64,000 nucleotides of DNA from Bacteroidales bacterium (GCA_017882305.1 JADGPU010000005.1:3797-67796), one strand, 5' to 3'. Shown: positions 3,092-64,000, counted from the first letter of the stretch. The notes: generated by a model from the letters alone, not told the origin. Numbers and translations: made by a program.

Positions 3092-3366
3092 GAATTAAAT
3101 ATTGTGGTGCGCTGCACCTCAGGTTGTTATTATTTACTGCTTTACTACTCCAAATATTTCGCAGCTCTGCTGCTTATTAGAACCTGAAAGTGCACCGTAA
3201 AATCTGTAGATCAGATGGTTATCGAGAAGGTCAAAATTGAAGAGTACTACAATATTTGTAGAATAGATGGGAACCCTAAAGGTTAGAGGTGCAGAGCACC
3301 GAACTATTTGTAGATTATACAGCAATCATTAAAATATAAGGTGCAGAGCACCGCACTATTTGTATT
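3092..3366. repeat. Six copies of a roughly 27-nt unit (5-bp hairpin GGTGC-NNN-GCACC plus A/T-rich tail), two rightward and four leftward, with 52-55 bp phasing
   Basis: Units end at 3118 and 3173 (one orientation) and at 3210, 3262, 3314 and 3366 (other orientation, exact 52-bp period). 3288-3312 and 3340-3364 are 24/25 identical. Outer copies match at 17-20 of 27. Confidence 0.75.
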
Positions 3367-3717
3367 GAACTGGAAAAAAGGGATAACTAAAAACTTTAAT
3401 CCTTTTTTAATTTTATTTTAATCCTCGTTTAATAGCAGTTGCTTACTATTGCTAATGTTAGTTTTTTAATAAAAGGTTTATAATTATCCTGAATTATTTG
3501 CATAGTCAGGATTCGTTTTTAGGGTTACAGGTTAATATTGTTTAGGTTAGTTTTAGCAGGTAAATGAAGTAGTAGGTTTTACAAATCAGGTCGTAATGTT
3601 TAATGGTATATGAAAATTACTATATTTACGGCCTTTTAATTTGTTCAGCCGGTTTTACAATTTGACTGAAAGTATAAAATAAGAACAATATTATATTAAT
3701 AAAAGATAACCCGAACA

Positions 3718-5427: not shown

Positions 5428-5434
5428 CCTCTTG

Positions 5435-6862: not shown

Positions 6863-6864
6863 AT

Positions 6865-8889: not shown

Positions 8890-8909
8890 TCTAATAAAGA
8901 AAGATAATC

Positions 8910-10070
8910 ATGAGAAAAACATTACAAAAGAATAGCTTGCAAAAAGCAGTTGCAGTCATTCTTTGTGGTATTTGTTCCGTTGCAGTTATTAATTCTCAGC
9001 CAATAGCTGAAAAAAGTACTGTCAAGACTAATCCTAAAGATGACATAAAGCCAATGCCTGTTTATGGTCATTGGAAGAATTTCACAACAAAAGAAGGATT
9101 GCCTAACGATCATGCTTATTGCGTTCGTATTGATGGAAAGCGTGTATTAGTGGGAACACATGAGGGTATGGCAGTATATGAGGATGGGAAGTGGACAACC
9201 TATACAACAAAAGACGGATTAGCTCATAACGGAGTTGTTTCAATAGATGTCAGTGAACTTACCGGTGATGTATGGATTGGAACATTGGGAGGACTAAACC
9301 GTTGGTCAGCCGGTAAATTTGAGACTTTTAATCAACTAAACAGTGGTCTGCCTAATGATCTGGTCTATTGCGTTTATTGTGACGGGAAAGATGTTTGGAC
9401 TGCCACAGGAGGTGGCGCTGGTCATTATGATACTTATACAAAACAGTGGGAAATTTTCACAGAAAAGAACGCGCCTATGCATGAACCATGGACTTATGGT
9501 GTCTCTGCCGGTGACGGAAAAATTTTTATTGCAGCATGGGGAGGCGGAGTAATTGAATACACTACTAAAACAAAACAATTCAAGGATTATACCGACCCTG
9601 ATGGTGAAATGGAAATAGATCTTCTTCCCGATGATGGCCCGGTTCATGACATAACAACCGGAACTACTTATGGAGATGGTCTTTTATGGGTATCGACATA
9701 TTTTGGTTTAAGCAGTTACGATGGTACACATTGGAAGGGCTACTTTGACCACGACAGCGGCCTGGCAAGTAATTTTATCAATTTTGTAAGAGCAAAGGGG
9801 CCTGTCGTTTTTATTTGCAGTGACAAGGGATTAAGTAGTACGAATGGAAAAAGCTGGGTAACTTATAAGAAGAATGACAAAAACGGTGATGGTGTGGCTA
9901 TTATAAAAAATTATGGCCGTATTGATGATAGTACAGTCGATAAAACTACCAAAGAACTACCAATGGCCCCATGCGTTGCTCATAATTTTGTAATCGGTGT
10001 CGATGCAGATGATCAGTTCCTCTGGGTTGCAACTGAGGGAGGTGTAAGTCGCGGAGAGTTACTGAAATAG
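8910..10070 (+). CDS. Secreted two-component-regulator-propeller (Reg_prop)-like beta-propeller protein
   Basis: Signal peptide. Repeated GLPNDxxYCV..G..W.GT..G motifs (GLPNDHAYCVRIDGKRVLVGTHEGM, GLAHNGVVSIDV..VWIGTLGGLNRW, GLPNDLVYCVYCDGKDVW). Confidence 0.6.
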   Translation: MRKTLQKNSLQKAVAVILCGICSVAVINSQPIAEKSTVKTNPKDDIKPMPVYGHWKNFTTKEGLPNDHAYCVRIDGKRVLVGTHEGMAVYEDGKWTTYTTKDGLAHNGVVSIDVSELTGDVWIGTLGGLNRWSAGKFETFNQLNSGLPNDLVYCVYCDGKDVWTATGGGAGHYDTYTKQWEIFTEKNAPMHEPWTYGVSAGDGKIFIAAWGGGVIEYTTKTKQFKDYTDPDGEMEIDLLPDDGPVHDITTGTTYGDGLLWVSTYFGLSSYDGTHWKGYFDHDSGLASNFINFVRAKGPVVFICSDKGLSSTNGKSWVTYKKNDKNGDGVAIIKNYGRIDDSTVDKTTKELPMAPCVAHNFVIGVDADDQFLWVATEGGVSRGELLK

Positions 10071-10140
10071 TTGAAATAGTTGACATGTTTAAGAATTGAA
10101 AAAATTGAAATAGTGGAAAGAGTGGAAAGAGTTGAAATAA
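10062..10140 (+). repeat. 9-mer array TKGAAAKAG filling the whole spacer between two genes
   Basis: CTGAAATAG TTGAAATAG (16 nt) TTGAAAAAA TTGAAATAG TGGAAAGAG TGGAAAGAG TTGAAATAA. The first unit contains the upstream stop and the last runs into the ATG at 10140. Confidence 0.85.
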
Positions 10141-10715
10141 TGGATGAAAAGCAATTATTGATAGATCTGTCAAAACTTACTGACGGAGAACGCATTGAGA
10201 TGAAAAAACTTGGGATCTTATCTGATGATAATAAAATTATTGAATCAGTTTATCCTTCAGTTCATAACGACCGGCCTCCGATTGAAAAACATTTGGTGCA
10301 TGCTCCCCAGGTAATTAACGAAGCTTATGATTATCAGAAACCTTCATCCTTTTCCAGGGCATTGCGTCTTGATTTCGGTGGGCATAAAGTACTTCTCATC
10401 TCAGGAACAGCAAGTGTGAATGAAGAAGGCAAAGCAGAGCACGTTGGTGATTTTAAGGCACAGCTCTGGAGAACATACGTCAATATCACAAATCTTCTTG
10501 AAGCTGAAGGCATGACCTGGCATGATGTAGTTAGGACAACAAACTATCTGAGGGATATTGAAAGGGATTATGCAGAATTTAACAAAATACGAACTTCCTT
10601 TTATCAGTGGATGAATCTTGATCCTTTGCCTGCCAGTACCGGAATTCAGGCACGGCTTTGCTGGGAAACTCTCCTTGTTGAAATTGAAGTGTATGCCATC
10701 TGTAAATCAAATTAA
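10140..10715 (+). CDS. RidA/YjgF/L-PSP-family protein with about 65 aa N-terminal extension
   Basis: Start moved to ATG 10140; the track ORF begins at a TTG inside the 9-mer repeat. Core VLLISGTASVNEEGKAEHVGDFKAQLWRTYVNITNLLEAEGMTWHDVVRTTNYLRD is RidA-like. No signal peptide. Confidence 0.7.
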   Translation: MDEKQLLIDLSKLTDGERIEMKKLGILSDDNKIIESVYPSVHNDRPPIEKHLVHAPQVINEAYDYQKPSSFSRALRLDFGGHKVLLISGTASVNEEGKAEHVGDFKAQLWRTYVNITNLLEAEGMTWHDVVRTTNYLRDIERDYAEFNKIRTSFYQWMNLDPLPASTGIQARLCWETLLVEIEVYAICKSN

Positions 10716-10725
10716 AATCAAGATC

Positions 10726-12036
10726 ATGAAACTTAATTGCAGAACATTATTAATTCTTGTACTTATTCTGAGTTCCATTACAAATTTATCTGGCCAGGAT
10801 AAGAAACAAAACTATGGTAAGGCTCCTGATGAAATTTTCCCATATGATAAGTATGCAAAACCATATAAATATCATTTTCTGATACCTCTGGAATTTTATG
10901 GAGCAGGCCGCGAGTTAAAACCTCCGGTAAATCTTAAGGAAGTACGCATAGGTTTTCTTGGACCATTAAGTGGTTCTATAATGGTCACGCAGGGTAAACA
11001 GATGTTGCAGGGAGCTACACTGGCAATGGAAGAGGCAAACAAGCATGGAGGATATAAAGGACTTCCCTTTAAGCTGATGATACATAATGATGTCGGGCAG
11101 TGGGGTGCTGCAGCCAACGAAGTAGTCAAAATGGATGACGAGAAGGTATGGGCATTTTTAGGGTCAATTGATGATATTGTTTCGCACGTAGCCTTGCGAG
11201 CAGCATTAAAACTTGAGATTTTCATGGTGTGTACAGGGGACCCTGATCCTACTTTTACGGAAACAAACATACCCTGGACACTCCGCGTTATCAGTGATGA
11301 TCGTCAGGGCATTTATGCATTAATCAACCAGATTTATAAGAAAGATGGTCACTCCAGGGTAGCAATTATCAGAACCGGAGCCCGGTATGGTCGGGTTGCA
11401 TTCAAGATTTTTTCGGAAAATGCCACACGTGTTGGTCACCCTGTAATTATTGAAGAGAGATTCACTGATGGGGAAACAGATTTTAAAACCCAGCTGGAAA
11501 GAATCATGGTAACAAATCCGGATGCGATACTCATATGGGGGAATGCCAAAGAATCTGCACTTATTTTACAACAGGCGAGGTTGATAGGATTAAAGCAACC
11601 TATCTATGGTTCTGACAGGATGGTTAATCCTGAGTTCCTTAAAATTGCAGGAAATCTGGCTGATGGCATGGTAACAACCTGTCAGTATAACCCTGATAGC
11701 GATAACCCAAAGCTAAAAGCATTTAAAACCAATTATCTGAAAAGATTTGGTCAGGAACCGGATGTATTTGCTGCACATGCTTATGATGGTATGAACCTAC
11801 TTATTGAAGCTATTAATAAGGCGGGCCTGAACCGTGTACTTATCCGCGATTTACTCACCGACCGGAAAACTTTTCAGGGTTATCCGGGGGTTACAGGTAA
11901 CATCGAATTAGATGGGAGCTGGAATGAAATACGAGACATATTTATGGCTAAAGTAAATAAAGGAAAGTTTGAGTTTACAGCGGCCCCTCCTTTGGATATG
12001 AAACAGAAAACAGGCAGTTCAACAGGATATTATTAA
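10726..12036 (+). CDS. Exported type-1 periplasmic binding protein (Leu/Ile/Val-binding-like), no cognate permease or ATPase nearby
   Basis: Start moved to ATG 10726 (MKLNCRTLLILVLILSSITNLSG signal peptide). IGFLGPLSG..GA.LA.EEAN, AHAYDGMNLLIEAINKAG and F.GVTGNIELD are typical of this family. Confidence 0.75.
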   Translation: MKLNCRTLLILVLILSSITNLSGQDKKQNYGKAPDEIFPYDKYAKPYKYHFLIPLEFYGAGRELKPPVNLKEVRIGFLGPLSGSIMVTQGKQMLQGATLAMEEANKHGGYKGLPFKLMIHNDVGQWGAAANEVVKMDDEKVWAFLGSIDDIVSHVALRAALKLEIFMVCTGDPDPTFTETNIPWTLRVISDDRQGIYALINQIYKKDGHSRVAIIRTGARYGRVAFKIFSENATRVGHPVIIEERFTDGETDFKTQLERIMVTNPDAILIWGNAKESALILQQARLIGLKQPIYGSDRMVNPEFLKIAGNLADGMVTTCQYNPDSDNPKLKAFKTNYLKRFGQEPDVFAAHAYDGMNLLIEAINKAGLNRVLIRDLLTDRKTFQGYPGVTGNIELDGSWNEIRDIFMAKVNKGKFEFTAAPPLDMKQKTGSSTGYY

Positions 12037-12052
12037 TCTGAAAAGGAAATAG

Positions 12053-12937
12053 ATGATGGAAACAAATCCATGCAATAAACCCATAAACGGCGAATCTTCC
12101 ATTCCATCAAGAGTGAGTCGAAAGACAAAACCCGATGACACAATAGTGAATGTTAATGGAGTTAAGGTAGGGGGTTCTGAAATTGTGATTATTGCGGGAC
12201 CATGTGCCGTTGAGAGCCATGAACAGCTGTTCGAAACTGCCAGATCAGTAAAGGCAGGCGGGGCAAGGATTTTAAGAGGTGGAGCTTTCAAACCACGCTC
12301 TTCGCCGTATAACTTTCAGGGACTGGGAGAAGAAGGGCTGAAACTTCTTGGTATTATAAGAGTTGAGACAGGTATGCCTGTTGTCACAGAGGTAATGGAT
12401 ACCCGGCAGGTTGAACTCGTGGCTTCATATGCTGATATGATACAGATCGGTTCACGCAATATGCAAAACTATCCGCTTCTTAAGGAGGCGGGTTTGTGCC
12501 GGAAACCGGTTTTGCTGAAGCGGGGTATGATGGCAACTATCGAAGAGTATTTAATGGCAGCTGAATATATCCTAACTCAGGGCAACGAACAGGTTATTCT
12601 ATGTGAGCGGGGTATTCGTACTTTTGAAACATCCACCAGAAATACACTCGATCTGAGCGCCGTTCCTATGTTGAAACGGCTCACTCATCTTCCTGTAATC
12701 GTTGATCCAAGTCACGGAACTGGTCTAAGGTGGATGGTGCCTGCAATGGCAAAGGCTGCTGTAGCTGTAGGTGCAGACGGTCTCATAATGGAGGTTCATT
12801 ATAAACCTGAAGAGGCAATTTGTGACGGTTACCAATCACTTAATCTGGATGAATTCGGACAATTGATGTCGGATCTGAAAAAAATAGCCGTTGCAGTCGG
12901 AAGAAACATTTCACTACAAAAACCTGCTACAGTCTAA
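12053..12937 (+). CDS. aroF: 3-deoxy-7-phosphoheptulonate (DAHP) synthase, type I-beta, with no fused chorismate mutase or ACT domain
   Basis: [70 protein letters not shown]. Confidence 0.9.
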
Positions 12938-12956
12938 TTGCAGATTGTATCATTTG

Positions 12957-14081
12957 ATGAGATTACTGAAACTATTATTACCGGTATGCTCCGTATTAGT
13001 ACTTCTTGTACTTATTACCAGGGATGTGCATGCCATCCAAAAACCTGATGGGTCAGGAACGACGATAAAAATCGGGCTGTTAATCTCTGAAAATAACTCC
13101 CTGGCTGCAAGACACGGTGCTGAAATGGCTATCCTGAAAGCCAATGAAAAGGGAGGGTTAAATGGCAAGCCTTTCCAGTTGGTTGTGCGTTCTATGGAGG
13201 GTCCATGGGGAACTGGCTCAAAGGAAGCAGTAAACCTTATATTTGAAGAAAATGTTTGTGCGATATTGGGTTCTCATGATGGAAGAAATGCCCATCTTGT
13301 TGAACAGGTTACCACCAAAGCACGGATAGTTTTTTTGTCTGCCTGGGCAAGTGACCCTACTCTTTCTCAGGCTTTTGTACCCTGGTATTTCAGCTGTGTA
13401 CCAACCGATCTTCAGCAGGCTGATGCATTAATTGAAGAAATTTACAATAAAAGAAAAATTGGAAAAATAGCAGCTGTTTCAGATAATAGTTACGATTCTA
13501 AACTTGCACTGGAAAGCTACATTAAAAGAACAAAACTAGCTGGCAAAGAAAGTCCATTGCAGTTATTCTATGATAATCCGACACTAGACTTTAATAGTAT
13601 AATTGATCAGATCAGTAAAGCTGGCGTCAGAGGTATTATTCTGTTTGTGAAACCATCAGCTGCATCGAGATTCATTCAGCAATTTGAACAAAGGAAAATG
13701 AATCAACCGGTTTTTGGTACCTTATCTCTTCTAAATGAAGACGAATCTTCAGATCGTGACCTTAAATATTATGAGAATATCGTATCAGTTTCTTTCGGAA
13801 ACATGTCGGGGTCAAAGAGTTTAGCCTTCCGGGAAGAGTTTCAGAAAACCTATAGTCAATTACCAGGTGCAGTTGCAGCATATTCCTTCGATGGCATGAG
13901 TTTACTTATTGATGCAATCAGAAATGCCGGACCTGATCGTGAAAAGATACAAAAAGCCCTGGCAAAAATACATTTTGAAGGCGTCACTGGAGCGATTCAG
14001 TTTGATGATAAAGGAAAACGAATGGGTACTCCCGGTATGATGGAAATAAAAAACGGCATTCCGGTTGCGGTTGAAAGATAA
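12957..14081 (+). CDS. Exported type-1 periplasmic binding protein, paralogue of 10726-12036
   Basis: Start moved to ATG 12957 (MRLLKLLLPVCSVLVLLVLI signal). IGLLISENNSLAARHGAEMAILKANEKGG, AYSFDGMSLLIDAIRNAG, FEGVTGAIQFD. Confidence 0.75.
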   Translation: MRLLKLLLPVCSVLVLLVLITRDVHAIQKPDGSGTTIKIGLLISENNSLAARHGAEMAILKANEKGGLNGKPFQLVVRSMEGPWGTGSKEAVNLIFEENVCAILGSHDGRNAHLVEQVTTKARIVFLSAWASDPTLSQAFVPWYFSCVPTDLQQADALIEEIYNKRKIGKIAAVSDNSYDSKLALESYIKRTKLAGKESPLQLFYDNPTLDFNSIIDQISKAGVRGIILFVKPSAASRFIQQFEQRKMNQPVFGTLSLLNEDESSDRDLKYYENIVSVSFGNMSGSKSLAFREEFQKTYSQLPGAVAAYSFDGMSLLIDAIRNAGPDREKIQKALAKIHFEGVTGAIQFDDKGKRMGTPGMMEIKNGIPVAVER

Positions 14082-14148
14082 AACTACGGTTTAAGTGGCT
14101 TTTATTTCTTAATTTTGATGTAATGAACCTTCCCGAAAAAATTCACTT

Positions 14149-17100
14149 ATGATGAAGAATATTAACATTTTCTTACTGATTGTCCTCTGCTCCTCTTTTC
14201 TGTTTAGTTGTAAGGAAACTGCAAAAGACACCAAGCAAAAATCAATTGAATTAATGACAACCCAAACCATGGGTCTTGCATATCTGGAAGAGTTTAAACT
14301 TGACGAAGCTGAAAAAGAATTTTTAAAATTCATCAAACTCGCACCCCATGAAAAACTTGGATATGCTAACCTGGGATTGGCATACTTAAGAATGGGTAAA
14401 TATCCTGAAGCAAAAAAACAGCTGTTTGAAGCTATTAAGATTGAGCCTAAAGATCCTGATATAAGGTTACTGCTGGCAACAGTTTACCAGATGAATGACG
14501 AACGTGAAAAAGCCATTTCGGAACTCAAAGAGGCTCTAAAATTTGCCCCGGACCATATTAAAATACTATATGATCTGACAGAATTATATTCTGCAGGATC
14601 AGATGAGGAATCTCAACAACAACGAAAGAATTTCCTGCTTCAAATGGTTGAAAAAGCTCCGGGAAATCTTGTCCCACGACTTAGTCTTACCGAGATATAC
14701 ATCCATAACGGAGAGACCGATAAAGCGACGGAACAGTTGGAAATTATTCATAAACAATTTCCGGAATTTCCGAAGGAAGCTATCGATTATTACAATAAAA
14801 CCCTCTCATTACTGAAAAAACCGGATAAGGAAAATGCGATTATTCAATTCACAATTTTCCATAATTATCTTAAGGTCACCTCACCATATCAGGCAGGTAT
14901 TATGGACCTAAAAGGGCCGGGCGGGTCGTTGATTGGTTTTCCTCTTATTACTTATGATCAGCAGCCTACTTCTTCATCAGGCGAAAATAAATCAATCCTT
15001 GATGCAATTAAATTTACCGACGCTACAGCATCTGCCGGTTTAAATATTGTCCCGGCTAACATTGATGATAAGAATACAGAATTCCGATATTCCACCCATG
15101 TGGAAGCAGCAGATTATGATAGTGATGGAGATGTGGATCTCTATGTGGGAAGCTACGATCAGGCAGCCTCAACCTATAAGCATTACCTCCTTAATAATGA
15201 AATGGGCAGGTTTAAAGATGTTTCAGAAGAAGCCGGAATAAAACATTCTGGTAAGGAATCATCGGCGACATTTGCCGATTATGACAACGATGGATTTCTC
15301 GACCTTTATATAGTGAAGGAAGGTGGAGACATATTATACAGAAATGCCGGGAAAGGAGTTTTTGAAGATGTCACCAACAAAGCACAGATTGGCAGCAAAA
15401 CAGGGGGAAACAAAGCTTTATTCTTCGATATGGATCATGACGGAGATCTTGACTTATATGAAACAAGGTCAAATTCAAATCTGATGTTCCGGAACAATGG
15501 TGATGGCACTTTTCAGGAGCAGGCAGAAAAAATGGGATTGTCGTGTAAGAATGCAAATAGCCGTGAAGCAGCTTTTGGCGATTTTGATGACGACGGTGAC
15601 ATTGACCTGTTTGTAGCAAATGAGAATGCCGGCAATAACTTATTTTCAAATCAACGACAGGGATTTTATAAGGATATTACTGAAGAAAGCGGACTTAGAA
15701 GTAACGGAGGTTCCGGTGCAGTAGCCGTGGGAGATTACAATAATGACGGATTTCTTGACCTCTTCATTTCATCAATTAATGGAGGTGACCATGAACTATT
15801 CCGGAATAAGGGTAATGGCAGTTTTGAACCGGTAAAGAATTCAAAAGAGATGTTCTCTGCAATGCAACACATTAAAGCTTATGATGCCAGGTTTTTTGAT
15901 TTTGACAATGATGGATTCCAGGATCTTATTATAGCAGGTGAATCTGAAGAAAAAGGTGGTCGCGGTATATTTCTTTATCATAATGACGGGAAAGGAAATT
16001 TTGAAGATGTATCCAGACTTTTGCCTGAAGAGCCCAAATCAGGGAGACAAATAACTTTATTTGATTATAATGATGACGGTGATCTGGATATGGTGATTGC
16101 CGGTTTACACGGAGGTATTACTCTTTTACGAAATGATGGCGGCAATAATAACCATTATGTAAAGATGAAACTTGTAGGCTTAAGAGCCGGAAGTGCTAAG
16201 AATAATCATTTTGGGATTGGGGCAAAAGTTGAAATGCGCGCAGGTGATCTTTACCAGACGTTAGTGGTAACTGACCAGAATATACATTTCGGGTTGGGAA
16301 ACCGGTCAAAAGCTGATGTAATAAGAATCACCTGGACAAATGGGGTGCCGCAGAATATATTTTCACCTGGTACCGATCAGGCGCTGATTGAGGCACAGAC
16401 ACTGAAAGGATCATGTCCGTTTCTCTTCACATGGAATGGAAATGAATTTGTATTTGTAAAGGATGTAATGTGGAGAAGTGCACTCGGTATGCCACTGGGA
16501 ATTATGGGAGGCAATACTGCATACGCATTCCCTGATGCATCTGATGATTATATAAAAATTCCCGGTGACTTATTGAAACCCAGGAAAGGACTATATTCTG
16601 TTCAGCTGACATCAGAACTATGGGAGACAATGTTCTTCGATAAGGTACAACTTGTTGCTGTAGATCATCCTGATTCAGTTGATATTTTCGTTCCTGAACA
16701 GTTTTCTCCACCACCTTTCCCCGGCAATAAGCTATTCCAGGTTAAAGAAAAACATATCCCGGTAACTGCAAAGGATTCACAGGGAAATGACGTTCTTTCT
16801 TTCATTGTTCTGAAAGATGATAAGTACCTGGCTGATTTCAAACCTGATAAATACCAGGGAGTTACAGAAATGCATGACCTGATTCTTGATCCGGGTGAGG
16901 TGGGTAAAAGTAAAAATTTGTTCCTGTTTTTGAATGGCTGGATATTTCCGACTGATGCCAGTATTAATGTTGCTATCGCACAATCCTCCGGTTTGAAAGT
17001 GATCCGTCCCTTTGTACAGGTAATTAATAGTAAGGGTGAATGGGAAACAGTTATTGATAATCTGGGCTTTCCTATGGGAAAGGATAAAACAGTAATTGCT

Positions 17101-54571: not shown

Positions 54572-54605
54572 AAAGGTATTTTAGCTATCATAAAAAAACT
54601 TGGAT

Positions 54606-56069
54606 ATGACTAAATCTAAATCAAAAATACCATCTCCCTTCAATCCTGAGGTTTTCAGAAAAGAGGGGCACATTTTAGTTGATACATTATCGGAGTACCT
54701 GGAAAGAGCTTTATCAGGAAAAGAAATGGCTGTTTTGCCATGGAATGATCCCGATCATCTGGCAGAAACTTTTTCATTCGATTCAGCCGGCAGTGAGGAA
54801 GAGTCGTTGGATGCCTTCATTAAAAGGATCATTGATAATTCTATCCATATACATCATCCGCACTATATAGGTCACCAGGTTACATCTCCTCTTCCCGCCG
54901 CAGTGCTTGTTCAGTTCTGTACTACTCTCTTAAACAATGGTGCAGCAATTTACGAGATGGGGCCGGTAAATATGGCTATGGAACGAAATGTGATAAAAAG
55001 GTTTGGATCACTTATTGGCTATATACCCGGATTCGATGGCATATTTACTCATGGTGGGACAGCAGGAAATCTCACGGCAATGCTGGCTGCAAGACAGGTA
55101 AAAACAGATTATAATATATGGGAGGATGGTGTCAGAGAAATGAATAGACCTGGCTACATAATATCAGAACAGGCTCATTACAGTGTCGCCAGAAATGTTA
55201 AAATAATGGGCCTTGGTGACGAATCGATAGTTAAAGTACCGGTTGACAGACATTTCAGGATGAGAACCGATCGTCTGGAAGAAATAAAAACTGCCGCAGA
55301 GAAAAAAGGTATCCGGATTATTTCAGTGGTTGCCAGTTCATGCTCCACAGCAACAGGTTCTTATGATGATCTGGAAGCTGTTGCCGATTTCTGTGAAAAA
55401 CATGAGTTATGGATGCATGTTGACGGGGCGCACGGTATGGGTGTTCTTTTCTCCGAAAAATATAAGGATCGCTTAAAGGGCATAGAAAGAGCCGATTCAG
55501 TAGTGATTGATTTCCACAAGATGCTGCTCGTACCTGCGCTAAACACACTGGTTATGTTCAGAAATGGAGAGAGGTCGTTTGAGACTTTTGCACAGAAAGC
55601 ATCATACTTGTTTCAGAAATCACAGGAAAATGTCTGGTACAACAGCGCCATCAGGACCATTGAATGCACCAAAAGTGCATTGGGAATCATTGCTTATACC
55701 GCATTAAAATACTATGGAAATGGTTATTACAGGAATTATATCGACAGCAGGTATGATCTGGCAGTTACTTTTTCACTGATGATCAAATCTGACAGCAAAC
55801 TTCAGCTTGCGGTAGAACCTGAAAGTAATATAATATGTTTCAGGTTCGCACCTGAAGGATATAATGACCTTGCTCTTAATCAGATAAATGCTGAAATCAG
55901 GAGCAGGATTATAAAAGAGGGATCTTTTTATATTGTCCAGACTGAACTTGAAGGAAAGATCTGGTTAAGACTGACAATAATTAATCCGGTTACTTCGAAG
56001 GATGATCTTAAAGCTCTATTAAAGATAGTTTCAGAGATTGGAAAGGAAGAAGTCAGAAAGATGGCATGA
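54606..56069 (+). CDS. Group II pyridoxal-phosphate-dependent amino-acid decarboxylase
   Basis: Start moved to ATG 54606. HPHYIGHQ, THGGTAGNL, MHVDGAHG, DFHKMLLVP (PLP lysine). Confidence 0.85.
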   Translation: MTKSKSKIPSPFNPEVFRKEGHILVDTLSEYLERALSGKEMAVLPWNDPDHLAETFSFDSAGSEEESLDAFIKRIIDNSIHIHHPHYIGHQVTSPLPAAVLVQFCTTLLNNGAAIYEMGPVNMAMERNVIKRFGSLIGYIPGFDGIFTHGGTAGNLTAMLAARQVKTDYNIWEDGVREMNRPGYIISEQAHYSVARNVKIMGLGDESIVKVPVDRHFRMRTDRLEEIKTAAEKKGIRIISVVASSCSTATGSYDDLEAVADFCEKHELWMHVDGAHGMGVLFSEKYKDRLKGIERADSVVIDFHKMLLVPALNTLVMFRNGERSFETFAQKASYLFQKSQENVWYNSAIRTIECTKSALGIIAYTALKYYGNGYYRNYIDSRYDLAVTFSLMIKSDSKLQLAVEPESNIICFRFAPEGYNDLALNQINAEIRSRIIKEGSFYIVQTELEGKIWLRLTIINPVTSKDDLKALLKIVSEIGKEEVRKMA

Positions 56070-56161: not shown

Positions 56162-56578
56162 TTAGGTTTTTATCAATTCTTTAAGAGTAGTTTTGGACAG
56201 AATACCATATGTAGTATCACGAATTTCTTTAAATACCTTTCTTATCTGACATGTTGTTTCATCCTTGCAAAATTCGCAAGGACGATAAGAATTTTCTGAA
56301 ACACAGTACATTAATGAAATTGTCCCCTCAAAATGACGAACAACATCAGCCAGGGTAACATCTTCTGGTTTTTTTAACAGATAGTATCCGCCAGATTTAC
56401 CGAGATTGCTTCCCAGGATACCAATTTTCCTTAAATCTAGCAGGATATTTTCAAGAAAACTCTGTGGTATCTTTTCTGCTTCAGCTATTTCGCGTATCTG
56501 CATTGGTCCTTTGCCATATTCCCTGGCTAGTCTCGTAAGCGCTACAATTGCATATCGGGTCTTTTTTGATAATATCAT
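56162..56578 (-). CDS. Rrf2-family transcriptional regulator (IscR/CymR-like) with Cys cluster
   Basis: MILSKKTRYAIVALTRLA..IREIAEAEKIPQSFLENIL. Cys-rich segment YCVSENSYRPCEFCKDETTC. Confidence 0.9.
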   Translation of the reverse strand: MILSKKTRYAIVALTRLAREYGKGPMQIREIAEAEKIPQSFLENILLDLRKIGILGSNLGKSGGYYLLKKPEDVTLADVVRHFEGTISLMYCVSENSYRPCEFCKDETTCQIRKVFKEIRDTTYGILSKTTLKELIKT

Positions 56579-56650
56579 AGGATTAGCTGAATATATTTGA
56601 TAAAGTTAAGTATTAATACCTAACCATTTGTGGTTTTTATGCCAATTATA

Positions 56651-56665
56651 ACCATTATAAATGGT
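56651..56665. promoter_or_regulatory. Candidate Rrf2 operator palindrome in the divergent spacer
   Basis: ACCATT-ATA-AATGGT between the Rrf2 gene and the porin operon. Confidence 0.25.
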
Positions 56666-56696
56666 ATTATATTTGTTCACAAAATCGGTAGACATT

Positions 56697-57818
56697 ATGA
56701 GACTTGTGCTTTCACTTTCATTTTTCCTGTTGTTTCTGGTAGATTCACTTTCACAATCAACAAATGACATCCTGAACCTGCTAATCTCAAATAAAACAAT
56801 TAGTCAGATCCAGGCTGATTCGGTCAGAGCCCAAGCAGCATTGCTTCAGCAACAAACTGATGCTTCACGTAAATCATTTTTTATAACTGCAACAAGGCAG
56901 ATACAGCTTACCGGATACTCTCAAGTAAGATATCAGACCTTTCAGGAGTCCGGTAAACATAATAGTTTCGACATTCGTCGTGCCAGAGTTGATTTAAAGG
57001 GTTCTGTAACACCATTTTTCTCTTACAGGTTGCAGGCTGATTTGGTCGATAAACCAAAAATTATAGATGCATATGGCGAGATAAAACTGGCCGACTACTT
57101 TTCACTTACAGCCGGTCAGTTTAAAATTCCTTTTTCAATGGAGAATCTAACATCTTCAAATAAGCTTGAAATGATAGATCGTTCACAGGTTGTTGAAGCT
57201 ATGGTCGCACGTAGCAAGGATGTAATAGGAAACCAGAACGGACGCGACATCGGCATTCAGGCAGGTGGAACATTCCTAAAAGTCAAAGATATTCCTGTTA
57301 TTGAATATAGGTTAGGGGTCTTTAATGGTTCCGGAATAAATGTTGCAGATACTGCCAATAATGAGAAAGATATTACCGGACGTCTCATTTTCACCCCAAT
57401 AAAAGGTTTGTCATTTGGAGGAGGATTTTATAAAGGTTGGGATAAGGCCATAAAACCTGATGTACCCGGCAAAAGTCAGACCAGAAACAGGTTCGGTGCC
57501 GAATTCTGTTATGTTTTGTCGCGGTTTTCTTTAAAAGGTGAATACATCGCAGGAAAAGATGGCAAGACAAGCAGAGCAGGTTGGTACGTTCAATCCGGAT
57601 ATTTTGTAATTCCTCAGAAATTTCAGGTTCTAGGTAAATATGACTCTTATGATCCTAATACATCAACTTCTGACAACATTTCTACAAACTATGTAATTGG
57701 GGCAAATTACAATTTTAACAACTGGTCGCGCTTACAGGCATTTTACACTATCCGTCAGGAAGAGGGTACTGCAATAAAAAATAATTTTCTTTCTGTTCAA
57801 TACCAGATCGGTTTCTGA
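56697..57818 (+). CDS. Phosphate-selective porin O/P-family anion porin
   Basis: Start moved to ATG 56697 (signal MRLVLSLSFFLLFLVDSLSQ). FDIRRARVDLKG, alternating beta-strand pattern, terminal YQIGF. Confidence 0.7.
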   Translation: MRLVLSLSFFLLFLVDSLSQSTNDILNLLISNKTISQIQADSVRAQAALLQQQTDASRKSFFITATRQIQLTGYSQVRYQTFQESGKHNSFDIRRARVDLKGSVTPFFSYRLQADLVDKPKIIDAYGEIKLADYFSLTAGQFKIPFSMENLTSSNKLEMIDRSQVVEAMVARSKDVIGNQNGRDIGIQAGGTFLKVKDIPVIEYRLGVFNGSGINVADTANNEKDITGRLIFTPIKGLSFGGGFYKGWDKAIKPDVPGKSQTRNRFGAEFCYVLSRFSLKGEYIAGKDGKTSRAGWYVQSGYFVIPQKFQVLGKYDSYDPNTSTSDNISTNYVIGANYNFNNWSRLQAFYTIRQEEGTAIKNNFLSVQYQIGF

Positions 57819-57836
57819 TAATTTAAAAGATATAAA

Positions 57837-58790
57837 ATGAAAATATTAATCAAGTCCTTTTTAATCATCGCTATTCTTTTTTCCTCCTTAACAGTTCCAA
57901 AATCTTATAGCCAGGAAAAGAGTTCAGGGCAGATAAGTATCTCCGGCGCCTTTGCACTCTATCCGATGGTAATAAGGTGGGCAGATGAATACAAAAAAAT
58001 TAATCCCGGAGTGCGATTTGATATATCAGCCGGTGGCGCAGGTAAGGGTATTTCAGATGCTCTTAACGGAATGGTTGAAATAGGTATGGTATCACGTGAA
58101 ATATACCCTGAAGAACTTAAAAAGGGTGCTTTCCCGATTGCAGTTACAAAAGATGCGGTTGTTGCAGTTGTAAGTGAGTCTAATCCTGTGCTTAACGACA
58201 TTATGACAAAGGGATTAAAGAAAGATGCCGGAAATAATATCTGGATAACGGGCAGATATACAACCTGGACACAGGCATTTGGGACAAAATCATCTTCTCC
58301 TATCCATATTTATACGCGATCTGATGCGTGCGGCGCTGCCGAGATGTGGGCTAAATATTTTGGTAAGAAACAAGAAGATCTGTTAGGTGTCGGAGTGTTT
58401 GGGGACCCCGGATTGGCTCAGGCTGTTAAAAAAGATCCCCTTGGAATAGGATATAATAATATTGGCTACGCCTATGATGCCACAACCAGGCAGCAGATTA
58501 AAGGGCTGAAAGTTGTTCCTATCGATCTGAATAATAATGGGAAGATTGATAGTGATGAGGATTTTTATAATTCGATGAATGATTTAATTGCTGCTATAGC
58601 TTCCGGAAAATATCCCTCTCCGCCTTCCAGGGAATTATTTTTCGTCATGAAAGGAAGTCCAAAAAATAGTAAGGTACTGACTGACTTTATCAGATGGGTA
58701 CTGACTGATGGACAAAAATATGTTAATGAAGCAGGCTATATATCTCTTCCAAAAGAAAGGATTGAATCGGAACAAAAGAAACTACAATAA
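57837..58790 (+). CDS. pstS: PstS-family ABC substrate-binding protein
   Basis: Signal peptide. ISISGAFALYPMV..ISAGGAGKGISDALNGMVEIGMVSRE. Confidence 0.8.
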   Translation: MKILIKSFLIIAILFSSLTVPKSYSQEKSSGQISISGAFALYPMVIRWADEYKKINPGVRFDISAGGAGKGISDALNGMVEIGMVSREIYPEELKKGAFPIAVTKDAVVAVVSESNPVLNDIMTKGLKKDAGNNIWITGRYTTWTQAFGTKSSSPIHIYTRSDACGAAEMWAKYFGKKQEDLLGVGVFGDPGLAQAVKKDPLGIGYNNIGYAYDATTRQQIKGLKVVPIDLNNNGKIDSDEDFYNSMNDLIAAIASGKYPSPPSRELFFVMKGSPKNSKVLTDFIRWVLTDGQKYVNEAGYISLPKERIESEQKKLQ

Positions 58791-58796
58791 ATTAAA

Positions 58797-59696
58797 ATGC
58801 GCCGCCTGAGAGCTGCTAAAGACAAGATTGCCCGGTATTTAATGCTGGGCATTGCCATTTTTACGATACTTTTTCTCCTCGTTATCGGGTTAAGCCTGTT
58901 TTTCAAAGCTTTACCAATAATGAGGGCGAAAAACCTGTGGGTATTGCTTTCCTCCGCAAACTGGAAACCATTCAAGGGGGATTTCGGTTTTCTCCCATTT
59001 ATACTCAGCACTTTCTACGTTTCGCTTATAGCCATAATTATTGCTCTGCCGTTTTCCATTCTTACAAGTATTTATCTCAATTCTTATGCATCAAAGAATG
59101 TTAGACGTTTTTTTGAACCGGTTGTAGACCTGCTTTCAGGCATTCCTCCGATAATATACGGTGTATGGGGAACATTAACGATCGTTCCGTTAATAGCCAA
59201 TAAGATAGCTCCCAGATTTGTGGAGTTTTCTACCGGTTATACAGTTCTTGCAGGAGGTATTGTCCTTGCAGTCATGATCATCCCTCTGTTGATAAGTATT
59301 ACGCTGGAAGTATTTCGTTCTATTCCAAAAGAGATGACCGATGCTTCGTTGTCTATGGGAGCAACCAAATGGCAGACAGTTAAGAAAGTTATTCTGAGGA
59401 AATCAATATCAGGGATTATTGCCGCAACCGTGCTGGCTTTATCAAGAGCCTTTGGTGAAACAATGGCTGTTTTAATGGTTTGTGGTAACATAACACAACT
59501 TCCACATTCAATTTTTGATGCCTGTTATCCGCTCCCGGCATTAATTGCAAATAATTATGGAGAGATGCTCTCAATGCCAAATTATGAATCAGCCCTGATG
59601 TTCTCAGCTTTCCTCCTGTTCATTATTGTGGTCTTATTTAACGGTATTTCGAGATTTACACTGAATCAAATTGAAAGAAGATATCAATTCTCATAA
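58797..59696 (+). CDS. pstC: Phosphate-type ABC transporter permease
   Basis: Six-TM profile. EAA-like loop SLSMGATKWQTVKKVILR. Confidence 0.85.
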   Translation: MRRLRAAKDKIARYLMLGIAIFTILFLLVIGLSLFFKALPIMRAKNLWVLLSSANWKPFKGDFGFLPFILSTFYVSLIAIIIALPFSILTSIYLNSYASKNVRRFFEPVVDLLSGIPPIIYGVWGTLTIVPLIANKIAPRFVEFSTGYTVLAGGIVLAVMIIPLLISITLEVFRSIPKEMTDASLSMGATKWQTVKKVILRKSISGIIAATVLALSRAFGETMAVLMVCGNITQLPHSIFDACYPLPALIANNYGEMLSMPNYESALMFSAFLLFIIVVLFNGISRFTLNQIERRYQFS

Positions 59697-59721
59697 CCAA
59701 TAATATGATTTACAGTTGATT

Positions 59722-60561
59722 ATGAAACAACTAGAAGAAAAAATATTTAAGATAATCATGATCTGCTCTGCAATGATCATCCTTGGCGTTCTTGTTTATA
59801 TAATTGCTACCGTTTTTTACAGAGGTCTACCCGCTCTTACGCTCGACATGATAACAAAACTTCCCGGAGGTGGATTTTATCTAGGGAAGGAAGGAGGAGT
59901 ATTAAATGCAATTGTGGGTTCCATATATATAATAATCGGATCACTTGCGATCAGTATGTTTATTAGTGTACCACTTGTGATGTACATTAATTTTTATCTT
60001 CCAGCAAAGTCAGTTTTTTCATCCCTCATCCGGTTTTCACTAGACATTCTTTTCGGAATACCATCAATAGTCTATGGAGCCTTCGGTTTTGCTCTTATGA
60101 TCTTCCTTGGAGTGCGGGCATCACTACTAGGAGGAATACTGACAGTTGCTATGCTCATAATGCCTATTATGATGAGATCCTTTGATGAAATAACCAGGCT
60201 GTTGTCCCGTGAACTGCCAGATGCCTTATTATCCCTTGGTGCAACAAAATATGAGATGGTAAAAGTCATACTAAGGCAACTTATGCCCGGATTAGTGACA
60301 GCCATTTTGCTTGCTATCGGCAGAGGCATCGGAGATGCAGCTACCGTTCTGTTTACGGCAGGATATACTGACAATATACCAAATTCACTTAATCAACCTG
60401 CTGCAACTTTGCCTCTTTCAATTTTCTTTCAACTTGGAAGTCCTGTTGAAGAAGTACAGAACCGTGCTTACGCTTCAGCAATAATCCTTACTGTAATTAT
60501 ACTTATACTGAGTTTTTCGGCACGATATTTCAGTTCAAAATTTTCAAAAAATAAGATATGA
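59722..60561 (+). CDS. pstA: Phosphate-type ABC transporter permease
   Basis: Start moved to ATG 59722. LLSLGATKYEMVKVILRQ loop. Confidence 0.85.
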   Translation: MKQLEEKIFKIIMICSAMIILGVLVYIIATVFYRGLPALTLDMITKLPGGGFYLGKEGGVLNAIVGSIYIIIGSLAISMFISVPLVMYINFYLPAKSVFSSLIRFSLDILFGIPSIVYGAFGFALMIFLGVRASLLGGILTVAMLIMPIMMRSFDEITRLLSRELPDALLSLGATKYEMVKVILRQLMPGLVTAILLAIGRGIGDAATVLFTAGYTDNIPNSLNQPAATLPLSIFFQLGSPVEEVQNRAYASAIILTVIILILSFSARYFSSKFSKNKI

Positions 60562-61400
60562 TCTCAACAAATCAATTTCTGGCAAAAAGCGACCATAATT
60601 CATTTATTGGAATGAATGAGCCTATCATTTTAAAAAAACTGGTCACTAATCAGTCGATAAGAATCGAAAACCTCGATGTATATATTGAGAATCAGCATAT
60701 TCTAAAGGATATGAACCTTACAATTCCTGAAAAAAGCATCACCTGCATTATCGGGCCGTCGGGATGCGGCAAGTCAACTTTCCTGAAAACGCTGAACCGG
60801 ATGCATGATGAATCGCCTGAAGTAAAGATCAGTGGCAAAGTATTTGTCGACGATGAGAATATTTATGGTCCGCACGTGAATGTGATTGATACCCGGAAAA
60901 AGATGGGTTTACTGGCTCAGCGACCATGTCCCCTGCCAATGTCGATATTTGAAAATGTTGCATATGGACCTCGGATACATGGGATAAAGAAAAGGAAAGC
61001 AGTAAATCAGACCGTAATCCAATATCTGCAGTATGTTGGTCTGTGGGATGAAGTCAGGGACAGAGTTCGAACATCTGCTACCCGATTATCCATCGGACAG
61101 CAACAGAGGTTATGTCTTGCCAGAGGGCTGGCAATAGAGCCTGAATATATTCTTGGAGATGAGGCAACTTCTGCACTGGATCCGCTTTCAACAAAAAAAA
61201 TTGAAGAGCTTTTTGTAAAACTGAAAGAAAAATATACCATCATCCTTGTTACTCACACGCTAAGACAGGCTAAACGAATCGCCGACCATATAATATTTAT
61301 GTACCTGGGTAAAATAATAGAAGCTGGACCAACTGAAGAGTTCTTTAATAATCCCAAAAAACAATTAACAAGGGATTATCTCTCCGGGAGTTTCAGTTAG
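60558..61400 (+). CDS. pstB: Phosphate-type ABC transporter ATPase
   Basis: ATGA overlap with pstA. IGPSGCGKSTFLKTLNRM, QQQRLCLARG (PstB hallmark). Atypical LSIGQ and GDEATSALD. Confidence 0.9.
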   Translation: MISTNQFLAKSDHNSFIGMNEPIILKKLVTNQSIRIENLDVYIENQHILKDMNLTIPEKSITCIIGPSGCGKSTFLKTLNRMHDESPEVKISGKVFVDDENIYGPHVNVIDTRKKMGLLAQRPCPLPMSIFENVAYGPRIHGIKKRKAVNQTVIQYLQYVGLWDEVRDRVRTSATRLSIGQQQRLCLARGLAIEPEYILGDEATSALDPLSTKKIEELFVKLKEKYTIILVTHTLRQAKRIADHIIFMYLGKIIEAGPTEEFFNNPKKQLTRDYLSGSFS

Positions 61401-61448
61401 TCGATTTGACCTGACCATTTTTGAGAAAAAGAAAATAATTAAGATGAT

Positions 61449-62144
61449 ATGCAAATACAGGATTTAAAAAATCAACTTAACGGGATTTCAATAGAGCATC
61501 AGTTAAATAAGCTGGTTTCTCTGTTCCCGGAAAAGATTATATTTACTACAAGTCTGGGAATTGAAGATCAGGTCATAACCCATAAAATATTCAAAAACAA
61601 CCTGGCTATTAAAATAGCGACACTCGACACCGGCAGGCTATTTCCTCAGACATATGATGTTCTCTCCAATACAGTAATCAGGTATAACAAAACAATAGAT
61701 ATCTATTTTCCTGAATATGAAGCTGTTGAAAAAATGGTAACAGAAAAGGGGCCACTTAGTTTTTACCAGTCAGTAGAGAATAGGAAAGAGTGTTGCAGAC
61801 TTAGAAAAGTCGTTCCCTTAAACAGGGCTCTGGCAGGCGTGAAGTGCTGGATATCCGGGATCAGGGCAGATCAGTCAGATGACCGTAACCAGATGGATTG
61901 GCTGGAATATGATGAGGCCAAAAATCTTTATAAATTTTATCCTCTTTTTAACTGGTCATTTGATGAGGTAAAGAACTTTATAAAAGAAAATAATGTCCCA
62001 TACAATTCACTGCACGACAAAGGATATGTCAGCATCGGATGTGAACCATGTACCAGGGCTGTAAAACCAGGTGGAGATTTCCGATCAGGAAGATGGTGGT
62101 GGGAGAACGACGGAGCAAAAGAATGTGGTTTACATATTAAATAA
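61449..62144 (+). CDS. cysH: Adenylyl-/phosphoadenylyl-sulfate reductase (Fe-S type CysH)
   Basis: C-terminal KECGLH signature. A CC pair (KECCRLRK) plus CEPC, typical of the Fe-S (APS-preferring) subclass. Confidence 0.9.
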   Translation: MQIQDLKNQLNGISIEHQLNKLVSLFPEKIIFTTSLGIEDQVITHKIFKNNLAIKIATLDTGRLFPQTYDVLSNTVIRYNKTIDIYFPEYEAVEKMVTEKGPLSFYQSVENRKECCRLRKVVPLNRALAGVKCWISGIRADQSDDRNQMDWLEYDEAKNLYKFYPLFNWSFDEVKNFIKENNVPYNSLHDKGYVSIGCEPCTRAVKPGGDFRSGRWWWENDGAKECGLHIK

Positions 62145-62287
62145 AGGCTAAGGCTAAGGCTAAGGCAAAAGGAAGGAAAGTTGCTGGTTACTCGTTGCTG
62201 GTCGCTGGTTTTGATCTCCAAATAGCAACAAGCAACAAGCAACAAGCAACAAGCAACAAGCAACAAGTAACGAGCAACAAGCAACAA
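62144..62287. repeat. Three consecutive word arrays after cysH
   Basis: AAGGCT x3 or more (62144-62169). GTTGCTG GTTACTC GTTGCTG GTCGCTG GTTTTGA (62180-62214). GCAACAA x6, GTAACGA, GCAACAA x2 (62225-62287). Confidence 0.9.
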
Positions 62288-62300
62288 AAAAAGCAATGAA

Positions 62301-63206
62301 ATGAAAAACATAAATGACGAACATCTTAAAGAACTTGAAGCTGAAGCGATCTTTGTTATGCGGGAGGTCGCTGCTCAGTTTGAGAACAAAGTATTATTGT
62401 TTTCAGGAGGAAAGGATTCGATTGTGCTTGTACATCTTGCAAGGAAAGCATTCTGGCCTGCCAGGATACCATTTAGTCTGATGCATATCGATACCGGTCA
62501 CAATTTTGAAGAGACCTTAAAGTTCCGCGATGATCTTGCAAAAGAATTCGGGGCAGAACTTCTTGTCAGGTATGTTCAGGATTCAATAAATATCGGAAGA
62601 GTGGTTGAAGAACAGGGTGTTAATGCAAGCCGTAACAAAGCACAGTCAATTACCCTTCTGGATGCCATCGAAGAACTCAAAATCGATGTGGCAATTGGAG
62701 GCGGCCGGCGTGACGAGGAGAAGGCCCGGGCTAAAGAGAGGTTTTTCTCACATAGAAATGAATTTGGTCAATGGGACCCTAAGAACCAGCGTCCTGAACT
62801 TTGGAACATATTTAACGGCCGGAAGCATTCCGGAGAACATTTCAGAGTATTCCCGATAAGCAACTGGACTGAATTGGATGTCTGGCAATATATTCTGAAT
62901 GAAAATATTAAACTTCCTGAATTGTACTATACCCATAAACGAAAGATATTCAGTCGTAATGGCGTTTATCTGGCCTGGGCCCCTTTCATGCAGCTTAAAC
63001 CAAGTGAACATGTATTTGAGTCTGATGTGCGTTGCCGGACAATCGGAGATATAACCTGTACAGGGGTAACACTCTCGAAGGCAGAATCACTTGAAGAAAT
63101 AATATCCGAAATAGCAGCCACGAGAGTCACTGAAAGAGGGGGAAGATACGATGATAAAAGATCAGAAGCAGCGATGGAGGACCGGAAGAAGGAAGGCTAT
63201 TTCTGA
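62301..63206 (+). CDS. cysD: Sulfate adenylyltransferase subunit 2
   Basis: HLKELEAEAIFVMREV..LFSGGKDS..HIDTGHNF..RGGRYDDK. Confidence 0.92.
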   Translation: MKNINDEHLKELEAEAIFVMREVAAQFENKVLLFSGGKDSIVLVHLARKAFWPARIPFSLMHIDTGHNFEETLKFRDDLAKEFGAELLVRYVQDSINIGRVVEEQGVNASRNKAQSITLLDAIEELKIDVAIGGGRRDEEKARAKERFFSHRNEFGQWDPKNQRPELWNIFNGRKHSGEHFRVFPISNWTELDVWQYILNENIKLPELYYTHKRKIFSRNGVYLAWAPFMQLKPSEHVFESDVRCRTIGDITCTGVTLSKAESLEEIISEIAATRVTERGGRYDDKRSEAAMEDRKKEGYF

Positions 63207-63208
63207 TT

Positions 63209-63262
63209 AAGACAAAAGATAAAAGTAAAAAGACAAAAGTAGGTACATGCCGTGGCATGTCC
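63209..63262 (+). repeat. AAGAYAA heptad element copy 3, fused to an ACATGCC-GT-GGCATGT palindrome
   Basis: AAGACAA AAGATAA AAGTAAA AAGACAA AAGTAGG, then GGTACATGCCGTGGCATGTCC. Lies between cysD and cysN. Confidence 0.85.
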
Positions 63263-63286
63263 ATTGTTCATAACAAGTCGCTTTAA

Positions 63287-64000
63287 ATGAAAATAAACGG
63301 AAAGCCTGAGAATAAGAGTCTGCTGAGATTCACAACAGCAGGCAGTGTTGATGACGGGAAAAGCACGCTGATCGGACGGCTTCTTTATGACAGTAAATCG
63401 ATCTTCGAGGACCAGATGGAGCATATTGTCCAATCAGGAAAACGATTGGGAAGACAAGATCTTGATTTGTCTCTTCTTACTGATGGTTTGAGAGCTGAAA
63501 GGGAACAGGGTATAACAATTGACGTGGCTTACAGATACTTCGCAACTCCTGCCAGAAAGTTTATAATAGCCGACACTCCGGGACACCTTCAATATACTCG
63601 GAACATGGTTACAGGTGCCAGTACTGCTGATCTTGCCGTAATACTAATCGATGCCCGTAAAGGTGTCCTGGAACAGACTGTAAGGCACACATATATAGCC
63701 TCTTTACTTGATATTCGACATATAATATTCTGTATCAACAAGATGGATATGATCAACTATTCCGAGACTGTTTTCCGGAATATCAGGGTTGACATTGAAA
63801 GACTTGTAAAAAAACTGGAGATTGAGGATTCACATTACATTCCAATCAGTGCTAAGTATGGCGATAACGTGGTCGACTATTCGGAGAATATGAATTGGTA
63901 TACCGGGAAAACCTTTCTGAATCTGATAGAAACTATTGAAATCAGTAAAAATAAAAATACTGATAATCAGCGTTTCCCGGTCCAGACAATTATCAGGCCA
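63287..64000 (+). CDS. cysN: Sulfate adenylyltransferase subunit 1 (GTPase), 5' part; continues past window end
   Basis: Not in the ORF track because it is open at the edge. Own translation from ATG 63287: [63 protein letters not shown]. Confidence 0.9.

Follow-up and report, generated by a model that had tools for sequence, protein, structure and literature searches.

A Pst-type transporter within a sulfate-assimilation operon of Bacteroidales is a candidate importer of sulfate

High-affinity uptake of sulfate for the cys regulon is carried out by ATP-binding cassette (ABC) transporters of the SulT family (CysPTWA/Sbp, TC 3.A.1.6), and in Bacillus subtilis a sulfate permease of the PiT family, CysP, is encoded in the cysH operon, which provides a precedent for the recruitment of a phosphate transporter family to sulfate. 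Phosphate itself is imported in Escherichia coli by PstSCAB, an ABC transporter of the PhoT family (TC 3.A.1.7; PDB 1IXH, 9K3S/9K3X; PMC12976172). Here, we analyse a 64,000-nt stretch of DNA from a Bacteroidales bacterium (hereafter the window; the source habitat is given as peat) in which a PstSCAB-like transporter (57837-61400) is encoded in an operon region (56162-64000) together with CysH, CysD and CysN. The window system has the four-component architecture, the gene order and the PstS fold of the E. coli transporter, and its binding protein has the same short PBP_like_2 architecture as the S-type phosphate-binding proteins, for example PBP-1 (PMC5381212). However, the locus differs from that of E. 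coli in having neither phoU nor a link to PhoBR, and sits in a sulfur operon beside a gene for an Rrf2 regulator. With the SulT systems the window transporter would share the job but not the family: the window permeases reach 30-44 bits with the CysT and CysW models, whose cut-offs are 246-329, and there is no Sbp/CysP match in the genome. The nearest functional analogy may be B. subtilis CysP, with the difference that CysP is a secondary carrier and the window system an ABC transporter. Our literature search found nothing relevant on a Pst-type sulfate importer or on an Rrf2-controlled sulfate operon in Bacteroidota.

We propose, from the sequence evidence set out below, that the genes at 57837-61400 quite probably encode an ABC importer of PhoT (Pst) descent for a sulfur oxyanion and, somewhat less firmly, that this oxyanion is sulfate. 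By descent, the transporter belongs to PhoT and not to SulT (CysPTWA); by function it is probably not a phosphate transporter. A preliminary description of the locus had offered two readings: that the Pst-like system imports sulfate or thiosulfate, or that phosphate and sulfate uptake are co-regulated here. The first is strengthened by the loss of pocket ligands, the separate phosphate systems of the genome, the linkage to cys genes and the enrichment of CysD and CysH among carriers; nothing specific favours the second. Since ATP sulfurylase is the first of the linked enzymes, sulfate seems a likelier substrate than thiosulfate or sulfite.

The argument starts with the binding protein (57837-58790), which fails the cut-offs of three PstS models (TIGR02136, 120 versus 206.6; TIGR00975, 72.9 versus 205; NF008171, 29 versus 339). 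An AlphaFold2 model based on 73 homologues reached a predicted local distance difference test score (pLDDT) of 94.8, and in a Foldseek search of the PDB with this model phosphate-binding proteins filled the top ranks to about 40, with template modelling scores up to 0.74; the modelled fold is of the PstS type. By sequence, the nearest solved relative is Clostridium perfringens PBP-1 (PDB 4GD5/4Q8R, E = 5e-20). The phosphate site of PBP-1 comprises 14 hydrogen bonds and seven hydroxyl side chains (Ser11, Thr12, Ser13, Ser41, Ser59, Ser129 and Thr131), the guanidinium group of Arg125 and several backbone amides, Gly130 included, and Ser13 has been proposed to accept the phosphate proton (PMC5381212). 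In an ungapped HMMER alignment, these seven residues correspond in the window protein to A38, F39, A40, A68, S86, C165 and A167: six of the seven hydroxyl ligands, the proposed proton acceptor among them, are replaced (by Ala, Phe, Ala, Ala, Cys and Ala), while Ser59, R125 and G130 are kept as S86, R161 and G166, with K70 and D163 as the remaining pocket positions. An independent MAFFT alignment, which took in E. coli PstS and six canonical PstS proteins of the same genus, showed T10, S38, S139 and T141 of the E. coli protein replaced by Ala, Phe or Cys, and Arg135 and Asp137 kept; the canonical proteins of the genus retain the Ser/Thr ligands. The new residues are a property of a whole clade, split from canonical PstS in the tree with a support of 97: 74 clade proteins of 50-100% identity show the motifs GA(F/W)ALYP, GAGK and RSDACGAA with little or no variation, and dozens of representatives of 50%-identity clusters have them as well. 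Wherever the source names them, the 120 closest relatives listed by protein search are called "phosphate transport system substrate-binding protein".

PstS excludes sulfate by means of a hydrogen-bond acceptor for the phosphate proton, whereas the sulfate-binding protein offers donors only. As judged from the alignments, the window pocket lacks both the hydroxyl network and the proton acceptor, and Arg161, Lys70, backbone amides and the aromatic residue at position 39 would make it a positive site of the donor type. Such a site suits an anion that has no proton to donate and therefore fits sulfate, which is unprotonated at physiological pH.

Two orphan PstS-like proteins are encoded elsewhere in the source genome (G000:C146:38516-39496, which is L014:8517-9497, and G000:C66:2164-3240, in L015), each beside a large TPR protein and neither with a permease gene nearby. 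The C146 protein shares 34% identity with the window protein, branches in the tree as the sister of the clade, and carries an RxDxSGAA-type motif in which Ser replaces Cys.

The second line of evidence is the gene inventory of the source genome, which is 92% complete. The preliminary description had proposed looking there for a second canonical Pst system with phoU and for sulfate permeases. The former was found: contig C20 carries pstC, truncated where the contig ends, together with pstA and an above-cut-off pstB (406 bits), divergent from phoU, a phoB of the Bacteroidetes type and phoR. Canonical PstS proteins scoring above cut-off occur in five genomes of the same genus, and that of the source genome probably lies beyond the contig break. 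Phosphate has a further recognised route in a PiT transporter, the only one in the genome, which lies away from the operon and is paired with a DUF47/PhoU-like (PhoU_div) gene. As for sulfate permeases, no SulP, Sbp/CysP (TIGR00971), DASS or CysZ was found in this 92%-complete genome, half of a TauE-type gene being the only related item in the inventory. Phosphate uptake is thus covered twice by recognised systems, and the cassette is the only recognised candidate for sulfate.

The genomic context of the cassette points in the same direction. We collected 80 related loci by scanning one genome per species (nearly all are metagenome-assembled genomes of Bacteroidales or other Bacteroidia) and assigned their neighbours by open reading frame (ORF) clustering and tblastn. 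An Rrf2 gene is present in 50 of these loci, cysH/cysD/cysN in 25 and genes of the cysK/metY/cysE type (cysteine synthase, O-acetylhomoserine sulfhydrylase, serine-acetyltransferase-like) in 18; PhoU, queried with the source genome's own protein, was found in none of the 80. The cysHDN genes come straight after pstB in about 24 loci and lie upstream, in a rearranged order, in L076. Three or more subclades of the tree show this linkage, which survives rearrangement in L076, L124 and L125. The second of these (L124, G029:C1:652000-671500, positions 3285-15632, minus strand) is a run of eleven co-directional genes with gaps of at most 41 nt, except one of 212 nt. It encodes, in order, a PstB with the LSIGQ signature, a sulfite reductase of 700 residues that has two NIR_SIR modules, the binding protein (motif RSDACGAA), PstC, PstA, a hemC/cobA/hemD fusion, HemB, CysD, CysN, CysH and the NAD-binding N-terminal part of siroheme synthase (cysG). 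Sulfate activation, reduction of adenosine 5'-phosphosulfate (APS), sulfite reduction and siroheme synthesis are all represented in this cluster, and the Pst-like system is its only transporter. Genome G042 has the same arrangement. In both genomes the PF01077 sulfite reductase is part of the cluster with the cassette; in G161 it is encoded nearby but on the other strand.

The distribution of the clade among Bacteroidales was assessed in 150 genomes drawn evenly, at about one for each genus, of which 50 carry the clade and 100 do not; since these genomes are related, they are non-independent samples for the Fisher tests that follow. CysD is present in 46/50 carriers against 57/100 others (odds ratio (OR) 8.7, p = 5e-6), CysD or CysH in 49/50 against 66/100 (OR 25, p = 3e-6) and NIR_SIR in 8/50 against 3/100 (OR 6.2, p = 0.007). 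Canonical PstB has no significant association with CysD, either in the whole draw (46/59 versus 57/91, OR 2.1, p = 0.07) or among non-carriers of the clade (16/27 versus 41/73, OR 1.1, p = 0.82). SulP, considered as the sulfate carrier of the relatives, was set aside as it does not track with CysD (41/64 versus 62/86, OR 0.69, p = 0.37).

The membrane and ATPase components are of the PhoT type, homologues of PstC, PstA and PstB with the channel arginine pair present. The PstC-type permease (58797-59696) exceeds its equivalog cut-off (TIGR02138, 273.8 versus 196.45), and the PstA-type permease (59716-60561; TIGR00974, 183.4 versus 193.45) and PstB-type ATPase (60558-61400; TIGR00972, 336.5 versus 343.2) fall slightly short of theirs. 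In the 2026 cryo-electron microscopy structures of the E. coli transporter, the phosphate site of the membrane domain is formed by PstA Arg220 and PstC Arg237/Glu241 (PMC12976172). The equivalents of all three residues are kept in the window proteins and in 60/60 clade members, in which PstA E224 is replaced by Asp and S130 by Gly. The ATPase has an intact Walker A motif and reads LSIGQQQR in 59/62 clade proteins, where the canonical PstB of the same genome has LSGGQ. In the window protein LSIGQQQR is accompanied by YILGDEATSALD; the canonical counterparts are LSGGQQQR and ILLMDEPASALD. The change marks the clade as a whole and is no peculiarity of the window.

Several observations weigh against a sulfate importer. 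The pocket was mapped by aligning the sequence with solved structures to which it is about 21-24% identical, and the conserved Cys165 is odd for a sulfate site and finds no explanation in our proposal. The arginines of PstC and PstA are unchanged, which makes the channel neutral as evidence. Carriers of the clade are also enriched for canonical Pst (OR 4.8), so that a shared free-living lifestyle could inflate the association with CysD, and in 16/50 carriers the cassette is the sole Pst-type system, so that the argument from redundancy fails there. About one quarter of the loci have uninformative neighbours (hydrogenase, housekeeping genes). Finally, a search for a siroheme sulfite reductase (PF01077) gave no hit in the source genome or in five congeneric genomes that are 99-100% complete, which leaves the pathway downstream of the importer incomplete as now understood. 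This gap is shared across the order: CysH is present in 98/151 genomes and NIR_SIR in only 11, and in 88 of the 98 CysH-positive genomes no NIR_SIR was found. The lack of a known sulfite reductase in most cysH-bearing Bacteroidales points to a missing step in their sulfur assimilation. Cysteate synthase (TIGR03844), examined as a sulfite sink through the sulfonolipid route, was not found. The window CysH itself is an intact APS reductase.

Among the alternatives, the one that fares best is another tetrahedral or sulfur oxyanion, namely thiosulfate, sulfite, selenate, molybdate or tungstate. The changes in the pocket disfavour phosphate only and do not name the ligand, the conserved cysteine would be unusual in a sulfate site, the porin of the operon weakly matches the porin ExtI of a selenite/tellurite operon, and E. 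coli has sister binding proteins for sulfate and thiosulfate. Such a ligand is nevertheless unlikely, for the linked enzymes begin with CysDN, whose substrate is sulfate, the G029 cluster runs from sulfate activation to a siroheme sulfite reductase, and molybdenum-, tungsten- and selenium-related genes are not recurrent in the 80 loci. A true high-affinity phosphate importer that merely shares a transcript with cysHDN, the two uptakes being co-regulated (ATP sulfurylase chemistry, for instance, uses ATP and GTP), is more doubtful still. It would account for the PstS fold, the kept channel arginines, the equivalog scores of PstC (passing) and of PstA and PstB (nearly so), the carriers in which the cassette is the only Pst-type system and the membership of the porin in a family named after phosphate porins, but it is at odds with the conserved replacement of six of seven hydroxyl ligands including the proposed proton acceptor, with PstS scores far below cut-off, with the canonical Pst beside phoU-phoBR and the PiT-DUF47 pair of the same genome, with PhoU having been found at none of the 80 related loci and with CysD being tracked by the clade and not by canonical PstB. 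A recent chance adjacency, with pstB and cysH transcribed independently, is very improbable: the weak sigma-70-like matches in the 48-nt gap occur at chance frequency and follow a consensus that is not that of Bacteroidota, no terminator was found, and cysHDN stands right after pstB across subclades and stays linked after rearrangement.

A mechanism for sulfate import can be suggested from these data. Sulfate would cross the outer membrane through the anion porin of the operon and be captured by the PstS-fold protein, in a pocket that keeps the Arg-Asp pair and backbone amides but no longer has the Ser/Thr hydroxyl groups or the putative proton acceptor. The PstC/PstA-type channel, with its paired arginines kept, would move it inward, powered by the PstB-type ATPase with its LSIGQ signature. 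CysDN and CysH, encoded on the same transcript, would then convert sulfate to APS and reduce APS to sulfite. Rrf2 is predicted to bind a 16-bp palindrome beside its own promoter and may thereby, as a repressor or an activator, link expression to sulfur or Fe-S status.

Extending the proposal beyond the window, we consider it reasonably probable that a large, so far unrecognised clade of PhoT-family transporters annotated as phosphate transporters are sulfate importers, common in anaerobic Bacteroidota and placed in many lineages under a dedicated Rrf2 sensor with four cysteines. If this is true, a whole branch of genes annotated as phosphate ABC transporter is mislabelled, many environmental "pstS" included, and a sulfur gene contaminates the pstS counts that serve as markers of phosphorus limitation in metagenomes from peat, sediment and gut. 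It would also supply a sulfate transporter for the many Bacteroidales that have cysDN and cysH and no recognised sulfate ABC system, and would provide a natural case of a phosphate-binding pocket converted to reject phosphate. The binding protein is small, soluble and modelled with high confidence, which makes the proposal readily testable.

The regulator (56162-56578, minus strand) is a 138-residue protein of the Rrf2 family (PF02082, 123.4 bits; TIGR00738, 116.4 versus a cut-off of 73.3) that scores under the cut-off of every named equivalog, CymR, IscR, RirA, NsrR and the SUF regulator (82 versus 195 for CymR and 72 versus 207 for IscR). With CymR and IscR it shares the Rrf2 winged-helix domain, the divergent placement and, if the candidate site below is correct, a palindromic operator. 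Its four cysteines, Cys92, Cys101, Cys104 and Cys110 (C-x8-C-x2-C-x5-C), are kept in 50/51 orthologues. Cys92 and Cys104 coincide in residue number with two cluster ligands of IscR, but the spacing is unlike that of IscR, and CymR has no cluster cysteines; the window regulator probably holds an Fe-S cluster or is thiol-sensitive.

The candidate operator is a 16-bp palindrome (56608-56623; TAAGTATT followed by AATACCTA), recognised as an inverted repeat and a conserved site: of the 36 sites collected, that of the window included, 34 match and are placed some 22 nt from the start of Rrf2. It adjoins a -7-like box of the Rrf2 gene, read by eye as TAACTTTA or TAACTTTG on the minus strand, an arrangement that makes autoregulation likely. 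Some 50 bp downstream of the palindrome, ahead of the porin gene, is a conserved TAnnTTTG box (TATATTTG, 56669-56676, plus strand). The latter box is of the Bacteroidota -7 type and recurs, followed by TTCAC..AATCGGTAGACATTATG, in the related loci whose shown intergenic region reaches that far, always equally far from the first gene; it is the predicted promoter of the operon. A weight-matrix scan of the whole genome found a single strong operator site (32.1 versus 20.6 for the next). The idea of a broad, CymR-like regulon was dropped: the only strong site is the present one, and cysE-cysK (contig C131) has none upstream, so that the regulon appears to be local, in which it differs again from CymR and IscR. 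A second conserved block, ACCATTTGTGGTTTTTATGCCAAT (56622-56646), comes right after the palindrome and is kept in most related loci; it may be a -33 region or a second regulator site. Some related loci carry an additional gene of the Crp/Fnr family beside Rrf2.

Gene calls for the whole operon region were made by Pfam and NCBIfam profile searches. They bore out the order given in the preliminary description, with its coordinates, from the divergent Rrf2 gene through porin, PstS-like protein, pstC, pstA, pstB, cysH and cysD to cysN, as well as its remarks that the regulator has a cluster of cysteines, that cysH takes the place of phoU after pstB and that the locus encodes no sulfate transporter of a known family. 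The 48-nt spacer between pstB and cysH (61401-61448) is of exactly the length stated there and has, as it had claimed, no hairpin: its fold z score relative to shuffled sequence is +0.92 and it has neither a terminator-like site nor a stable structure. The description had also named a terminator or an independent promoter between pstB and cysH as contrary evidence; no terminator was found, and on the promoter side only chance-level sigma-70-like matches fall in the gap. Such matches occurred at chance frequency in the sigma-70 scan as a whole, which was set aside as the consensus is not used by Bacteroidota.

All genes from the porin onwards are on the plus strand. The spacings are 18 nt between the porin and binding protein genes, 6 nt between the latter and pstC, 19 nt from pstC to pstA, a 4-nt overlap of pstA and pstB, the 48 nt already mentioned, 156 nt from cysH to cysD and 80 nt from cysD to cysN, which fits a single transcript. 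Terminator-like matches in the region numbered 6 against 5.8 expected, which is chance, and none falls in a plus-strand intergenic gap.

CysH (61449-62144) is of the thioredoxin-dependent APS-reductase type (TIGR02055, 244.3 versus 235.3; NF002537, 257). CysD, the small subunit of sulfate adenylyltransferase (62301-63206), scores 404.9 against a cut-off of 396.6 (TIGR02039), and CysN, the GTPase subunit (63287-64000, continuing past the window end), scores 359 with TIGR02034 on the 238 residues inside the window; all three score above their cut-offs. On the full contig CysN (L012:8084-9352) has 422 residues and no fusion to APS kinase. In the spacer between cysH and cysD (62145-62300), arrays of AAGGCT (four copies) and of GCAACAA-like units (ten copies) pair with an upstream arm rich in GTTGCTGGT to form an imperfect hairpin (z = -3.2) that is not followed by a U-run. 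The spacer varies from 40 to about 210 nt across relatives and is only about 40 nt long in the close relatives L020, L021 and L024, which marks the hairpin as a variable insertion rather than a conserved terminator; the spacer behaves like an inserted repeat element.

The porin (56697-57818, 374 residues from its likely start) belongs to the Porin_O_P family (PF07396, 92.7 versus a gathering score of 20.9), from which its anion role is predicted. Its longest ORF begins at 56661, but the ATG at 56697 is likely the true start because a signal-peptide-like N-terminus results and the conserved promoter block stays upstream. In related loci the same position is occupied by a Porin_O_P, by an Alginate_exp-like barrel or by no outer-membrane component.

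Some related loci have other surroundings. In five of them, of 50-58% identity and with the same pocket signature (L080, L082, L083, L086 and L088), the cassette follows NuoE/NuoF-like genes and a gene for an [FeFe]-hydrogenase large subunit, in three of the five a second hydrogenase-family gene comes after pstB, and none has an Rrf2 or a cys gene. The neighbours of this 50-58% identity subgroup ([FeFe]-hydrogenase, MoxR, SurA, sigma factor) were considered as clues to the ligand and gave no information on it.

Past cysN (L012:9448-11009, contig C34) lie genes for a 242-residue CCG-domain/dicluster-like protein, an HYC_CC_PP protein and another ORF, which are kept in the closest relatives only and followed in relatives by an RND (resistance-nodulation-division) pump; no link to sulfur emerged from the CCG-domain, HYC_CC_PP and RND pump genes. 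On the other side of the operon, just upstream of the region and convergent with Rrf2, is a gene for a group-II pyridoxal-phosphate-dependent decarboxylase (54600-56069) that is kept in six close relatives. The protein resembles PanP and diaminobutyrate decarboxylase, scoring under both cut-offs, and may have a link to the metabolism of sulfur amino acids.

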